DNA from: Candidatus Multivorans sp.
GTDB lineage: Bacteria > Acidobacteriota > Thermoanaerobaculia > Multivoradales > Multivoraceae
Reading direction: 5' to 3'
DNA length: 64,000 nucleotides
NCBI GenBank assembly: GCA_965224025.1
Contig: OZ245033.1
Location: 2,848,001-2,912,000, forward strand
Shown here: piece after piece, positions 35,536 to 41,937 of the stretch
How the letters are laid out: each line of letters begins with the position of its first letter
How positions within the stretch are numbered: the stretch's first letter is position 1
Notes under the pieces: generated by a model
Database searches by the model: none
Seen by the model: the letters and a program-made list of their open reading frames with translations, nothing else
What the model was told of the DNA's origin: nothing
Translations under genes and position numbers: made by a program

Positions 35536-36448
35536 AGGGATTCTCCTATCGTTGGTTCGCTGTTCCCCGAGCCGTCTACGCCGCGGCCCGTGAGACCCTC
35601 GTTCGACCGTCGACGTGGCGTTCGTCGCTGTAGCGCTCGTCGTGTCGCAGCACCGCCCAGGCGATCCGCGCCAGCTTGTTGGCCACGGCCACCGTGGCGA
35701 TGCTTGCTTCCCGGCGCCGCTTGACGTCCAAAGCCCATTCCTTGAGCCTCGTCCGCTCGCCCTTGTGAGCCGTGCGCAGCACCGCCCGCGCACCGTGGAT
35801 CAGAAGCGCCCGCATGTAACGGTCCCCGCGTTTGCTGATTCCCGGCAGCACCGTGCGCCCGCCGGTCGATTCCTGACGAGGCACCAGCCCGAGAAACGCC
35901 GACATCTGACGACCGCTGCTGAATGCCCAGCCCGAGCCCACCGACGCCACCAGCGCCGTCGACACCATCGGACCGATGCCCGGGATCGACATCAGACGCT
36001 CGCACAGCGGGTTCTCCTTCGACTCCCGCTCAAGCATTGCCGTCAGATCGGCCACCTGCTCGTCGACCTGCATCAGCGCCTGGTGCTGCATGCACAAGAG
36101 AGCCCGAAAGTCGCCCGGCAGGTCCCGTTCCGGGTCCGTAGCGATCGCAGGCACCTCCCGCATCACCACCGCCACGCCCTGAGGCAGCCCGATCCCGTAC
36201 TCCCGCAGAAAACCACGCAACTGGTTCGCCAACCGCGTGCGCACTCCCACCATCGTCTCCCGACTCCGGTGAATCTGCTGCAGCGCCCGACGCTCCTTCG
36301 TCTTGTACGGCACGAAACGCATCGTCGGACGAGACACCGCCTCGCAGATCGCCTCCGCGTCGTGGTAGTCGCTCTTGTCCGATGAGGTGGTCCCGGAAAA
36401 CTGGACAGGTGGCTAAGGTGTACTCCTCGACCTAGAGGAGGAGCCAGG

Positions 36449-36730
36449 ATGAAGAGGAAGCGTCGGAAGTTCACTGCGGCTTTCAAGTCGAAGGTGGCGC
36501 TTGAGGCGCTGCGTGAGGAGAAGCCGCTCGCGGCGATCGCATCGCGGCACCGGATTCACCCGAATCAGGTGAGCAGTTGGAAGCGGAAGGCGATCGAGGG
36601 GATGAGTGAGACCTTCTCGGCCGGGCCGGAGCGGCGCCGGGACCACGAGGAGGAGATCAGGGACCTGCACGCGAAGATCGGGGAGCTGACGATCGAGCGG
36701 GATTTCTTGTCCAGGGGGCTCGGGCACTGA
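36449..36730 (+). CDS. IS3 OrfA (HTH)
   Basis: RRKFTAAFKSKVALEAL, IHPNQVSSWK, LHAKIGELTIERDFL. Confidence 0.93.
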   Translation: MKRKRRKFTAAFKSKVALEALREEKPLAAIASRHRIHPNQVSSWKRKAIEGMSETFSAGPERRRDHEEEIRDLHAKIGELTIERDFLSRGLGH

Positions 36731-37617
36731 GCCGGACCGAGCGCCTGCGGATGATCGAGCGGGAGACGGGTGACGTGAGCTTGAGTCGGCAGTGCCGTCT
36801 GCTCGAGATCAGCCGTTCCTCGCTGTACTACCGGCCCAAGGGCGAGAGCGCCGAGACGCTGGCCCTGATGCGCAGGATCGACGAGCTGTTCCTGCTGTAC
36901 CCGTTCTACGGTTCGCGTCAGATGGTCCGCCACCTTCGCCGAGAGGGCGTTCGGGTCGGTCGTCACCGGGTGCGGCGTCTGATGCGGTTGATGGGTATCG
37001 CGGCGATCTACCGGGCGCCGCGGACCAGCAAGCCTCACCCGGAGCACAAGGTCTATCCCTATCTGCTCAGGGGGCTTTCCATCGAGCGTCCGGATCAAGT
37101 CTGGTGCTCGGACATAACGTACATTCCGGTGCGCGGCGGGTTCCTGTACCTGGTGGCGGTCATGGACTGGGCGAGCCGTCGGGTGTTGTCCTGGCGGCTG
37201 TCGAACAGCCTGGACGCATCGTTCTGCGTCGAGGCCTTCGCCGAAGCCCTCGACCGGTACGGCAAGCCGGACATCTTCAACACGGATCAGGGGAGCCAGT
37301 TCACGAGCGGCGACTTCACCGGTCTTCTCGAGAACGCGACGGTGAAGATCTCGATGGACGGCCGGGGTCGCTTCCTCGACAACATCTTCATCGAGCGCCT
37401 GTGGCGCTCGCTGAAGTACGAGGCGGTCTACCTGAACGAACTCGTCGACGGCATCGAGGCGCGGCGGGTGATCGATGGGTGGCTCGCCTTCTACAATGAG
37501 GAGCGGCCACACACGGCGCTCGGCGGCAGGACACCTGCCGAAGCCCACCGCGGACTAATGGGCATTCCGCAGAATCGAGAGTTTTCCACAGCCCCGGCGA
37601 CGGCGGCTGCGGCGTAA
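36727..37617 (+). CDS. IS3 OrfB (DDE integrase core)
   Basis: WCSDITY, NTDQGSQFTS, DNIFIERLWRSLKYE. Confidence 0.94.
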   Translation: MSRTERLRMIERETGDVSLSRQCRLLEISRSSLYYRPKGESAETLALMRRIDELFLLYPFYGSRQMVRHLRREGVRVGRHRVRRLMRLMGIAAIYRAPRTSKPHPEHKVYPYLLRGLSIERPDQVWCSDITYIPVRGGFLYLVAVMDWASRRVLSWRLSNSLDASFCVEAFAEALDRYGKPDIFNTDQGSQFTSGDFTGLLENATVKISMDGRGRFLDNIFIERLWRSLKYEAVYLNELVDGIEARRVIDGWLAFYNEERPHTALGGRTPAEAHRGLMGIPQNREFSTAPATAAAA

Positions 37618-37886
37618 TCAACACATGGAGTACACCTTAGCCCGGCCTCGAAACTGTCCAAAGGACCGGGACCACCTCACGACTTCACGTACGCACGCAC
37701 AAACTGAGGACTCATCATCCGCACGTCGTGACCCAGCTCGCGCAGCTTCTCCACCCAGTGGTGCGCGCCGCAGCTCGCCTCCATCCCCACCAGGCACGGC
37801 TTGAGCCGCGACATCAGCTTCATCAGCCCCGGCGCCTTCACCTGACGCTGCAACACCACCGACCCCGACGAGTCCATGCCGCACAC

Positions 37887-38020
37887 CTAGCGAGGCTTCG
37901 CCTCAGACCGACGAGCATGTCCTTGCGGCATCCGCTGTCCCCTGCAGGCGACGTATCGATGCATGGCTCTGGCTGAAACTTGCCTCAACTGTAAAGACCA
38001 CGCTCGTTCAAGGAATCTAG
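37887..38020 (+). mobile_element. 130-bp non-autonomous miniature of the adjacent CTAG-bounded element
   Basis: First 34 bp identical to 38017-38050; last 46 bp 41/46 identical to 39819-39864. Confidence 0.85.
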
Positions 38021-39864
38021 CGAGGCTTCGCCTCAGACCGACGAGCATGTACTGGGCGGTGTCTGGTTGTGGGTCTGAGCTTGATCGGACCCCGGGCGCT
38101 GCTCCAGCCGCGGAGAGAATCCGCCTCGATAGTCGCTCATGGGCGAAGGTGGCCGTATGCTGGCCGGTGAGGAGCCCATCGACCGGAGTCCGTCCATGAA
38201 GGTAGCACGCAGCGTAGCCGAGGTTCTTTCGGATCACACGTCGTTGACGCTTGAGAGCGTCGACAGGATGTACCTCAACGTCTATGTTCCGCTGCTTCAG
38301 CGGGGCGTCGGCGCGGCCTGGTTCTTCCGGGAGTTGCAGGGCTGGCAGGTGCCGTCGTCGGTACTGATGGCGCCGATGACGAGGCGCTTCGTGGCGGCGA
38401 TCAAGGGCTACGCGAGGCAGCACCGGGTCGAGATCGTCTCGTTCCGGCGCGGCGAGCGGAAAGACGACCGTACCCGGGAGTTCCTTCGCCAGTGGCGCGG
38501 TGGGGAGGGTGTGCTGTACATCGGCAAGGCCCAGGAGAAGGCTCGGGTGTTGCGCTCGCGGCGCCGCCAGAGTTCGTCGGGCGTTTGGTATCCGTGGTTG
38601 ACGGACTCGACGGCGATGGTGAACCACTACTACTTCTACGCGTTCGACGATGACTTCGGTCCGTTCTTCGTGAAGTTCTGCTCGTACTTCCCGTACAACG
38701 CGAAGCTGTGCATCAACGGCCACGAGTACCTGAAGCGTCAGTTGAGCAAGCGGGGGATCAGGTACGAGTCGCTGGACAACGGCATTCTGCACTGCTCGGA
38801 CCCGGAGGCGATGCAGCAGTTGGCCGACAGCCTCGACGCGGACAGGATCGATGCGCTGCTGCGCAAGTGGCTGGCCCGACTGCCTCACCCGTTCGCGGCC
38901 CGGGACAGGCGGCAAGGCATTCGCTACGACCTGTCGATACTTCAGGCCGAGTTCGCCTTGACCCAGGTCTTCGACCGTCCGTTGCAGGGCCGGGTCTTCT
39001 TCGAGGAGGTGATGCGGGAAAACCTCGACATGGGTCGGCCCGAGCACGTTCAGTTGATCTTCGACCGGCGGATCACCCGCCGCACGCCCTCGGCGTACCG
39101 CACGCGCGTCATCACCTCGGGAGTGACGCCGTCGTTGCACGTGGACTACAAGCACTCGCGGATCAAGCAGTACTACAAGGAAGGGCGCGCCCTGCGCACC
39201 GAAACGGTGATCAACGACACCTACGACTTCGATGTCGGTCGCCGGCTGAGAAACCTCGATGATCTGAAAGGATCGGCTTCGCCGCCAATCGACGCCTGCT
39301 CGGCGTCCAACGTCTCAGCCGCGACTGCATGATCGGAGCCCAGGTGCTCGACGACCTGCACCGTCCGACCTGCGCCAACGGCCAACGCGCTTCGGCACTC
39401 CGCTTCGGCGACCAAAGAGTGCAGGGCCTGTTCGCCGCCCTGCTGCGGTTCAACCTGCTGCCGCAGGGCTTCCGCAATCGCGACCTGCGCCAGACCGTGG
39501 CCGGGTTGTGCGGACTCCAACCGGAGGACTACGGGCCTTCCCGCATGACCTACGATCTGCGACGCCTCCGTCTGCGGGGAATCATCGAACGGATTCCCCA
39601 CACCCAGAGGTACCGGCTCACTCCCGAAGGACTCCGCATCGCTCTCGCCTACCACCGAACGCACGCACGAGTGCTCGGACCTGTCCTCTCGGCCACCAGC
39701 GACCCGGAAGCCAACTCGAAAATCCGCAGCGCTCTTGCCTCCTATGATCGCGAGCTCCAGAGAGCCTGGATCGGACAACCGCTCGCAGCATGAACACCAG
39801 CGCGGGTAACTTGCCGCAGAAACTTGCCTCAACTGTAAAGGTCACGCCTGCTCAAGGAATCTAG
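38017..39864 (+). mobile_element. CTAG-bounded IS-like element without terminal IRs, encoding a Rep_trans-like/wHTH protein
   Basis: Ends defined by the miniature copy; CTAG at 37887, 38017 and 39861; left-end hairpin GAGGC-TTC-GCCTC. Confidence 0.8.
38196..39793 (+). CDS. Putative tyrosine transposase/replication-initiator-like protein with C-terminal winged helix (about 530 aa, frameshift near 39270)
   Basis: SVDRMYLN, QAEFALTQVF, IKQYYKEGRALRTETVIN, MTYDLRRLRLRGIIERIPHTQRYRLT; one missing base joins the two ORFs. Confidence 0.65.
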
Positions 39865-40313
39865 ATGGCTCGCGGGCCCCTGCCACTCCTTGCCTGCCCT
39901 TGAGACAGGAAGGTGTCAATCTGCCGCAGCACCACCTCCGGGTCGCCCAATGCGCACTCCCAGACAGTCAGCACGCGCCAGCCGATTTCGACCAACTTGG
40001 CCACGTTCTCTCTGTCTCGTTCTCGTGTGCGCACGAGCTTTGGCTTCCAGTAGCCGAGGTTCGACTTCGGCAAGGTAGCAATCGGGCGTTCAGGATCCGG
40101 ATGCCAGTGCCAGAAGCAGCCGTTGACGAAGATCACTGCGCGATGTCGTGGGAAGACAAGGTCCGGCGTGCCGGGCAGATCGCGCCGATGCAGCCGGAAA
40201 CGGTAGCCGTGGCGGTGGACCATCGAACGGACCGCACTCTCGGGCCGCATGCCCTTGGATCGGATCTGGGCCATGCAGCGCGCGCGGTCGACGGGGCTTG
40301 GGTTGTCGGTCAC
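39861..40313 (-). CDS. vsr: Very-short-patch repair endonuclease
   Basis: MAQIRSK, PE, GYRFRLH, LPGTPDLVFP, FVNGCFWH, VWEC. Confidence 0.9.
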   Translation of the reverse strand: MTDNPSPVDRARCMAQIRSKGMRPESAVRSMVHRHGYRFRLHRRDLPGTPDLVFPRHRAVIFVNGCFWHWHPDPERPIATLPKSNLGYWKPKLVRTRERDRENVAKLVEIGWRVLTVWECALGDPEVVLRQIDTFLSQGQARSGRGPRAI

Positions 40314-40786
40314 TTTGGCTTGGGTTTGTGAGCCGCGACCATCAAAGCCTGCGCGGCCTCTCGACCGACCAGCCTGTCTGGCGTCTGCTCGGGCACCGCA
40401 TCGAGCAGCAGAACACCGCCACGTCGGTTGAGCGCCACCGTCGATCGGTTCCCAGCCGTTCGATGAGAGAATCTCCAGATTCCGATGTGGTATCCGCGTC
40501 GAATCGCCCGCTTCCTCGATTCTCAGTTCGACTCGGCCGCCCTCTTCCGGTAGGGAGCTGAGTTCCAGGCGCGTTCGATTGCCTCCGACTGAAAGCAGCC
40601 GCACGTCCCGGACGGCAATGGCGCTTCCCCTCGCGACGCCGCCTCGAGCGCCCGTACCGCCCGTTCTCCTTCGCCGCCTCCGATGCCGGTTCCTCAGTCC
40701 CCTGGTTCTCGCCCTCGCCACCACCAACCTCGTGGCCTGTGTCGTCGCCGTCCCCTCCTTCGGCGTGATCCGTGTCCCGGCCGACC

Positions 40787-41937
40787 TCAAACGCCCCAAA
40801 CGGTCACGGGCCGTCCGTCGAGATCCTTCTCGCGGCGGAAGATCTCCTCCTCCCATGGCTTGTCCTCGGAGCGGTCGAACACGACGAGGTGCCCCGACTC
40901 GGCCCGGCAACGATCCATGTAGTCGATTGTCTGTTCGAGCCCCTCGCGAATCGTCGCGTCGACGCTGCCGCGGACGATCTTGCACTCGACGACGTACCGG
41001 CGCGGTGGCTGGGCCGCTTCACTGCCGCTGCCGAGGCAGTCCGGCGGCCAGACGATCAGCAGGTCCGTACGCCTTCGCCCCAGGCCGTATTCGCGCTCGA
41101 TCCGGCCGCCACCGTTCACGATCCGTTGCAGGAACGCCTGCAGCAGCAATTGGGGCCCCGCCTCGCGGTACTCGAAGCCCAGTGTTCCGAGTGTTCACGG
41201 AAGAAGCGCTGGAACGCGGCCAGCAGGGCTTCGACGTCCAGGTCGCCGTCGGCCTTGACGTACCACCCAGTCTCCTGAACCAGCCCTTCCTGGGCGGCGG
41301 CGGTCAGTTCGCGCGGCATGACTTCGGCATAGATCGGATTCGCGATCCGCAACGGACTGTCGCGGGCGACCAGCCCCAGGTCGCGGACGTACTCAAGGTC
41401 CCGGGCCGTGAAATCCGGCTCGTCGCCGCCGCTCAGCAGGGGCGCCACTACCCGCCGCACGCGGGGCTCCCGCAGCTTGTCCGCGAGTTGATCGAGATGG
41501 GTCTGGCGGCCGACGATCAGCGCTTCCTGGGCCTCTGATATCGCGTCCTCGTCGATCCGCTGCGAGCGGTTCCGTCCTGCCTTGTCCCCAAAGCACGCCT
41601 GATACGCGAGCGCGTTGACCAGCCAAGGTTGGCCGCAAGTCTGCCGCCACACGGCCGCGACCGCCTCCTCCGCGAACTCCTGGCCGGTTGCCTCGGTGTG
41701 CTGGCCGAGCAGGGCTCACACGTCGTCCGCCGTGAGGTCCCCCAGCCGCAGCGACTCCGCCTTGATATTGAAGGCGCTGCCGCCGGCGATGATCTCGCCC
41801 CCGGATTCGGAGTGGATGCGGTAGTCGCCGCTTCGGTTCAACAGATCCTGCAGAGCCAGCAGGGCCGACGTCTTGCCCGTCTGCCGCGGCGCGTGCAGCA
41901 CGCAGTAGCGGCGCTCGCGGATCAGCCCGAACTCCAC
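40787..41937 (-). pseudogene. AAA-like ATPase with C-terminal PD-(D/E)xK domain, deleted and frameshifted
   Basis: HAPRQTGKTS, GSAFNIKAESL, GQPWLVNAL, IANPIY, REYGLGRRRTDL..VVECK in three frames. Confidence 0.85.

Follow-up and report, generated by a model that had tools for sequence, protein, structure and literature searches.

A miniature element joined head to tail to a full-length element at CTAG, probably moved in trans by a predicted Rep_trans-like nuclease

IS91 has unlike ends, makes no target-site duplication (TSD), lies with a target tetranucleotide beside its oriIS end, carries a palindrome at its terIS end and forms a bottom-strand circle, and 89 + 82 bp of its ends suffice in mini-IS91 (available text of PMC13181058). 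The natural miniatures of IS801 are one-ended right-end fragments, as described in the accessible part of PMC3189936. Prokaryotic MITEs are characterized, in the available portion of PMC10969869, as non-coding, multi-copy units of 50-500 bp which need a transposase in trans. Helitrons are of the rolling-circle type and leave no direct repeats (accessible part of PMC5714925), and they possess a terminal hairpin (accessible part of PMC4778049). All of the rolling-circle transposases described in the literature examined are HUH enzymes. The Rep_trans signature consists of a tyrosine on a beta-sheet, three acidic ligands and a YxKxxE motif (PMC5714925, same part) and, in the literature examined, the occurrence of Rep_trans proteins is limited to plasmids, filamentous phages and conjugative elements. 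In the archaeal Rep-Arvir protein, a MarR-like winged helix comes after a TBP-like nuclease domain (PMC13107129).

The locus described here lies in a window of 64,000 nucleotides of Candidatus Multivorans (contig OZ245033.1, C1 in the coordinates below). Copies of CTAG at 37887-37890, 38017-38020 and 39861-39864 enclose 126 nt of a mini element and 1840 nt of a full element, which stand head to tail (Table 1). We consider it probable that the mini is a gene-less family member with both ends of an uncatalogued 1.84-kb insertion sequence (IS), and that it is moved in trans by the transposase of the latter, a predicted Rep_trans-like, non-HUH tyrosine nuclease through an IS91-style single-strand rolling-circle transfer. 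Alignment reproduced the tandem layout reported in the earlier note, together with its identical 30-nt left ends following CTAG and its right-end differences, which number 5 within the last 42 nt (5/46 when CTAG is counted). On folding, the sequence of the mini left end gives a hairpin, GAGGC-TTC-GCCTC, at 37892-37904. Terminal inverted repeats are absent, the ends being complementary at 6 and 7 of 30 terminal positions, and a search of Rfam with 37600-40000 returned no match.

Table 1. Features of the tandem and its flanks (window positions).
Feature	Position	Strand	Remarks
IS3-family element, 8 identical copies	36383..37679	+	inserted in the same IS110 gene; context
IS110-family transposase gene, target	37680..37887	-	cut at the YQV codon; 5' remainder at C1:4009435, right of full copy 2
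Mini element, 130 bp	37888..38017	+	TAG-CGAGG...GGAAT-C with crossover at C|TAG; boundary inferred from relatives
Mini left end	37888..37920	+	identical to full-element left end; contains hairpin
Mini filler, type A, 54 nt	37921..37974	+	family-specific; identical filler at C1:1478153
Mini right end	37975..38017	+	motif AAACTTGCCTCA, variable spacer, then CAAGGAAT-C
Head-to-tail junction CTAG	38017..38020	+	C from mini right end, TAG from full-element left end (inferred)
Full element, 1844 bp	38018..39861	+	sequence match to second copy
Transposase N-terminal frame	38196..39332	+	predicted TBP/Rep_trans-like nuclease domain
Transposase C-terminal frame	39269..39793	+	predicted MarR/PadR-type winged helix
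Full-element right end	39819..39861	+	alignment with mini right end
Right flank, 3' end of vsr	39862..40400	-	stop codon is TAG of right CTAG; brought by inversion

The filler between the two ends of the mini is foreign to the full element, as had been stated earlier: the best alignment of the two on either strand scores 18, a value reached by 132 of 200 shuffled sequences. A source of the filler was sought in the full element, in a local remnant (an 11-nt match, reached by 10 of 200 shuffles) and among 80 related loci, and none of the three gave a significant match.

BLAST and motif scans of the genome (5.14 Mb in 3 contigs) identified 11 complete minis at 11 different sites, and one tandem besides that of the window. 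The minis have three types of filler, namely A (the window mini and the copy at C1:1478153), B (eight copies, with a filler 9 nt shorter than A) and C (one copy), and their right-end haplotypes are shuffled relative to the fillers. Incomplete forms are also present, comprising one interrupted mini as well as left-end-only and right-end-only remnants. The proposal of a non-autonomous family is therefore borne out by the 11 copies. Its description as MITE-like holds for the small size and the non-autonomy, the units being short, non-coding and multi-copy with ends in common with an autonomous-type element; it does not hold for the terminal inverted repeats (the 6 of 30 positions given above) or for target duplication. 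The mini had also been taken to define the minimal cis ends. Conservation suggests it as an upper bound for these ends.

The second local tandem (C1:1209089-1209275) consists of a 66-bp micro element, both CTAG counted, placed head to tail with a B mini. The micro (C1:1209210-1209275) is devoid of the AAACTTG motif, and its right-end haplotype resembles that of C1:1478153 and not that of its neighbour. We have rejected it for now as the minimal mobile unit, since it is a single copy from which this conserved motif is missing.

Of 30 other genomes, 9 contain a match to the mini. In the relatives G002, G012, G018 and G058, the same ends enclose different fillers in minis of about 97-250 bp, and the relative genome G028 contains 111 left-end matches, most of which are covered by the 86 loci examined there. 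Across the arrays of G028 and of metagenomes, units with unrelated fillers range from 77 to 500 bp. We also observed in G028 (L165-L194, L216-L271) minis of about 220-820 bp, many of them in head-to-tail arrays and many adjoining other repeated ends.

Full elements at 80 related loci, both ends of which could be parsed in 54, were used to define the crossover. The right 4-mer is CTAG at 52 of these 54 sites, while the left 4-mer is CTAA at 27, CTAG at 21, CCAG at 4, ACAG at 1 and TACT at 1, the last of which is probably misparsed, and it is constant within each group of identical elements. All seven left ends of the element of genome G054 finish in CAG, preceded by C in six and by A in one, and CTAG is present in all 5 of its right ends seen. 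Since the left 4-mer is element-specific and the right one is CTAG, the element supplies positions 2-4 of the left 4-mer, and the target supplies position 1. As read from these alignments, CTAG is not a target-site duplication, the crossover lies at C|TAG and the element runs TAR-CGAGG...CAAGNNNN-C; sites with TTAA on the left and with CTGG on the right (L087) are compatible with this crossover. The one CTAG which the earlier note had assigned to both units of the tandem is thus retained as a position but not as a duplicated 4-mer, given that in relatives TAG is part of the left end and the right end contributes C only. Among relatives, the stem of the left hairpin shows compensatory variants (GAGGT/ACCTC in 3, GAGAC/GTCTC in 2) around a variable loop, and a conserved AAACTTG(A/C)CTCA motif lies about 40 nt inside the right end.

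CTAG stands on both sides of 10 of the 11 complete minis, as would be expected of an ordinary MITE of a DDE-type IS that duplicates a 4-bp CTAG target. Such an origin is nevertheless very improbable, because it is contradicted already by the CTAA/CTAG and CCAG/CTAG element groups, the left 4-mer being element-specific at 32 of the 54 related sites; moreover, terminal inverted repeats are absent, the transposase has no DDE family match and no RNase H fold appears among the top structure rows.

Two local sites are exceptions to the crossover rule. At C1:1180341 the left 4-mer is CTGG and the right one CTAG, empty copies of the host repeat being mostly CTGG. As for the IS110 target, its intact homologs have CTGG without exception (11 of 11), yet CTAG is found at both junctions here. 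Each of the two sites requires either one additional point mutation or a mechanism acting on both strands, in which a site-specific recombinase would use a circle of double-stranded DNA, cutting in a staggered manner around the central TA, and mismatched cores would be resolved either way. A recombinase of this kind explains both sites and the CTGG-right L087 as well. However, random resolution would erode the ends which the G054 element keeps constant, and the predicted fold of the enzyme is like that of single-strand nickases and not of tyrosine, serine or DEDD recombinases, so that we regard this alternative as unlikely.

The target extends beyond the 4-mer. Position -4 is A at 73% of 53 related sites and at 61% of 13 own sites, as compared to 17% of all CTAG, and A occupies this position in the host left flank of both local tandem sites, including that of the window, where the right end of the element itself has G. 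We also noted a second CTA within 10 nt upstream at 13 of 53 related and 5 of 13 own sites, as compared to 7% of all CTAG sites. In this genome, CTAG occurs at 0.35 of its expected frequency.

Several observations bear on how the tandem arose. It could be an artefact of assembly, and the contamination of the bin (5.66%) would allow for this, but we find the idea scarcely credible. The haplotype combination of the window mini is unique in the assembly, the nearest copy being 5 nt different, and therefore it was not copied by the assembler from another site. Furthermore, the genome has a second, different tandem, the same kind of junction is present in 29 metagenome loci and in genome G041, the 8 copies of the IS3 element and 7 full-length copies of a DDE_3 element align gap-free, and the exchange of flanks described below is backed by synteny.

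The earlier note had offered insertion into the element's own end and rolling-circle read-through as sources of the tandem, and had expected arrays to be built. Arrays are indeed seen in the second local tandem, at 8 of 60 fully parsed G028 sites (7 doublets and 1 triplet) and at the 29 metagenome loci, of which 25 are without a transposase match in the DNA examined. Within the order, 2 of 201 genomes contain the exact junction pattern. If the same enzyme had produced the tandem by read-through or as a concatemer, mini and full element would have moved as one unit from a donor where they were already adjacent, and a circle would indeed contain the sequence of their junction. Failed termination is put at 1-14% for IS91-family elements in the available text of PMC13181058, and the internal junctions of the G028 arrays are often degenerate. 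Neighbours in metagenome arrays are identical at 80/92 to 119/120 positions, the highest value being that of L303, and at 155-161 of 163-165 in L309; read-through or local duplication accounts better for the L303 neighbours, and some arrays may grow in either way. For the window tandem, in contrast, this origin is rather improbable. The tandem of mini and full element occurs once in the genome, full copy 2 has no mini upstream, and neighbouring units in both local tandems are of different haplotypes, which argues that the local tandems are not concatemers of one circle. A donor tandem would, in addition, need an origin of its own, and in the sole case of a repeated tandem (L030/L031) the flanks on either side are the same. 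No circular intermediate was seen among the 29 junction loci.

The junction core is CTAG in 31 of 32 metagenome junctions, though 27 of the 54 full elements are CTAA-left, a contrast that is not an independent test as these junctions are related sequences selected by one exact pattern. Together with the different haplotypes, the CTAG-rich cores fit insertion at the left junction of a resident element better than they fit read-through. Most likely, then, the tandem results from a second insertion, which used the CTAG that the resident had regenerated at its left end. A tandem count of 3 in 54, obtained by automatic parsing of related sites, was set aside, as two of the three are contig ends.

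Tandems make up 2 of the 14 local sites (p=0.003 against uniform use of the 2311 CTAGs), and another 2 of the same 14 adjoin ends of the DDE_3 element, which we take to be of the IS630 type. This element is about 986 bp long (C1:4006357-4007338 and 7 more copies) and its ends provide CTAG. Since the enrichment at own ends is equalled by that at DDE_3 ends, it reflects the reuse of CTAGs in mobile elements and not self-recognition; scarce, harmless CTAGs are simply reused as targets. The related full elements L014, L022 and L066-L069 adjoin ends similar to those of the DDE_3 element.

The second full copy is inverted at C1:4011295-4009450 and is 100% identical over 1846 nt. The two halves of the IS110 gene are split between the two full copies, which are 1.12 Mb apart, and at 16 of 19 relative loci the genes found at 42-45 kb of the window come directly after the gene that lies left of copy 2 here, an order broken by the inversion. 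From the split IS110 gene, the synteny of relatives and the inverted identical copies, it follows that the tandem was formed in the IS110 gene and that a later inversion swapped the right flanks. Homologous recombination between the two identical inverted copies is likely to have produced this inversion of about 1.12 Mb, which spans C1:2886017-4011295 with 38018-39861 of the window as one end. The midpoint of the full copies (3,448,656) is 17 kb from the GC-skew maximum (3,466,090), the likely terminus. Pfam gave no label for the gene on the left side of full copy 2, the query being probably out of frame, and its CPHQG/CPWHG motifs suggest a Rieske-type protein.

The surroundings of the tandem form a nested pile of IS elements, in which one IS110 copy holds the IS3 element, the tandem and an ISL3 (window 35576-37887; L161:5950-7435). 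On the other side, the vsr gene (39861-40985, minus strand) directly adjoins the element in this CTAG-depleted genome. Full copy 2 has a 13-bp tandem duplication immediately within the CTAG of its right end (C1:4009435-4009460), and L038 has a similarly doubled tip, which makes up a palindrome together with another, oppositely oriented right end.

The two full copies have a 1-nt loss in common, near window position 39269. The frame is lost at about 39267-39271, where 5 nt stand in place of the 6 nt of homologs. Programmed frameshifting was ruled out, because close homologs are single ORFs of 533 aa and 9 of 10 compared loci are in frame (the tenth is off-register). A tblastn search of the whole assembly found two full copies and one deleted remnant only, and no intact helper transposase gene. 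Mobilisation in trans, as put forward earlier, is thus the likely route, and the helper has likely been lost or is unassembled. In related loci we observed a full element without its left end (L010:1700-3750), in surroundings which, from the type of their repeats, we presume to be a CRISPR array, and another repeated sequence inserted at the same position of the left-end hairpin in L009, L012, L013 and L075, which suggests a second element that may target this hairpin of full elements.

Homologs of the transposase are numerous (at least 8000 clusters at 90% identity; 11,019 representatives at 50%), and plasmid records call them 'hypothetical protein'. Searches of Pfam, NCBIfam, PDB sequences (single and profile) and the ESM Atlas returned no usable name. 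PF02486 gave no match at E<=1 for three homologs, and the profile search against PDB sequences retrieved no PF02486-type protein. The element's protein also has no match to PF01548 or PF02371, whereas the flanking IS110 pieces match both.

AlphaFold models were obtained for a 533-aa homolog (pLDDT 88.8) and for residues 1-350 of the window protein (pLDDT 91.0). The top Foldseek match of both is RepSTK1 (4CIJ), with weak scores (E 1.4e-3 and prob 0.97; E 2.3e-3 and prob 0.93), none reaching E<=0.001 and TM being 0.17-0.32. The top five VIA matches of the N-terminal domain are three TBPs, RepSTK1 and RepDE, with Z of 7.0-6.3 over 157-166 residues at an rmsd of 4.2-5.0, the best Z of 7.0 being inside the range that VIA itself terms inconclusive. 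The ranking agrees across three fold searches, in which the VIA scores, likewise weak, are 6.3 to RepSTK1 and RepDE and 7.0-9.3 to TBP. Viral structure matches include inovirus proteins and TBPs, and residues 382-510 match MarR/PadR winged helices with Z up to 9.5. In an alignment of 70 sequences, D23 (66/70), E253 (69/70), Y327 (67/70), K329 (65/70) and E337 (67/70) are conserved, and D23, E253, Y327-x-K329 and E337 are each placed on a predicted beta-strand. The same alignment has no conserved pair of histidines two residues apart, H14 and H177 being the only well conserved ones. As modelled, the enzyme is likely to combine a Rep_trans-like TBP-fold domain with a MarR-type winged helix.

A scheme for the element has to account for the ends, crossover position, target preference, dispersal, arrays and inversion that these genomes display. 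We propose that Y327 would nick one strand. By analogy with IS91, from which the strand and the ori and ter assignments are taken, the right end, which is beside the invariant target bases and downstream of the gene, would serve as the origin, the bottom strand (5'-CTA|G) would be transferred and the left hairpin would act as the terminator; in the alternative polarity, top-strand transfer would start at the left end. Left-end stubs (L012 after the right end; L009, L013 and L075 on the left) were rejected as evidence of polarity, as they are cut by another inserted sequence. A left end of the TAG type would rebuild C-TAG and retain the host left flank, so that the site would stay a good target. 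The mini would have landed, as an independent second insertion, upstream of the full copy resident in the IS110 gene, and the inverted full copies would then have recombined, inverting about 1.12 Mb and exchanging their right flanks.

A search of the accessible literature found no account of this element family or of a Rep_trans-type transposase. The element is probably a rolling-circle-type transposon with a new class of enzyme, to which this locus adds a non-autonomous family, an exact crossover rule, a stacking rule and an inversion. We lean slightly towards a broader reading, in which the mini would represent a naturally occurring minimal substrate for a new class of transposase, namely a Rep_trans/TBP-fold tyrosine nickase with a winged helix that moves by rolling circle into C|TAG without duplication, uses ends of about 30 + 45 bp around an unrelated filler and rebuilds its own target, giving rise to arrays at one site; it would be a non-HUH equivalent of IS91 and Helitrons that evolved independently, is represented in thousands of clusters of bacterial proteins and still bears the label 'hypothetical'. 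If true, a very large unannotated IS family whose enzyme is predicted to be Rep_trans-like would extend the known classes of transposase by one. The minis make the family testable, as they offer short natural ends, tolerate unrelated fillers and have their crossover fixed at C|TAG, and the mini likely marks short ends with which a new way of bacterial DNA jumping can be tested. An element that has very short ends and inserts scarlessly at a 4-mer could also serve as a tool. The family shapes genomes, as seen from the left-end matches in G028 and the inversion here.

Among known systems, the structures closest to the modelled N-terminal domain are the Rep_trans (PF02486)/MOB_T proteins RepSTK1 (4CIJ) and RepDE (4CWC), with which it appears to share conserved acidic residues and a Y-x-K on a beta-strand. 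Unlike them, the element's protein has no detected sequence similarity to Rep_trans, no RxD (Q-x-E stands at the likely place), a fused winged helix and a place in a dispersed chromosomal IS. In domain layout and residue spacing, by which they were compared, Rep-Arvir/RepSNJ2 resemble the element in the predicted order of domains and in a hairpin in the cis element (E25, D207, Y283 and E303 in Rep-Arvir against D23, E253, Y327 and E337 here); according to the available text of PMC13107129, however, they are replication initiators of archaeal viruses and plasmids and not transposases.

The minis are like prokaryotic MITEs in size, in being non-coding and multi-copy and in their dependence in trans, and unlike them in having neither terminal inverted repeats nor a target duplication. 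Helitrons and their non-autonomous forms are alike in the rolling-circle type proposed for the element, the missing direct repeats and the terminal hairpin, and Helitrons have a CTAG-like terminus; they are eukaryotic fusions of HUH and helicase, whereas the element here has no helicase. IS200/IS605 elements encode an HUH Y1 enzyme and have subterminal hairpins at both ends. The element does not belong to them, as its protein has no match to HUH Y1 TnpA and no conserved HxH, nor to IS110/IS1111, as the protein has no DEDD transposase match. The IS91 family (IS91, IS801, IS1294, ISCR) shares with the element unlike ends without terminal inverted repeats or TSD, a short target motif beside the end downstream of the gene, a palindrome forming a hairpin at the end upstream of the gene, short ends and natural miniature forms. 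In contrast, the element's transposase is without the HUH (Y2) motif or a conserved HxH and has a predicted TBP-like fold, its target C|TAG is palindromic, its left end carries TAG, TAA or CAG, and its minis keep both ends around an unrelated filler where the miniatures of IS801 are one-ended. The element probably works like IS91 and mini-IS91, yet it is not a member of their family, as it has no HUH enzyme.
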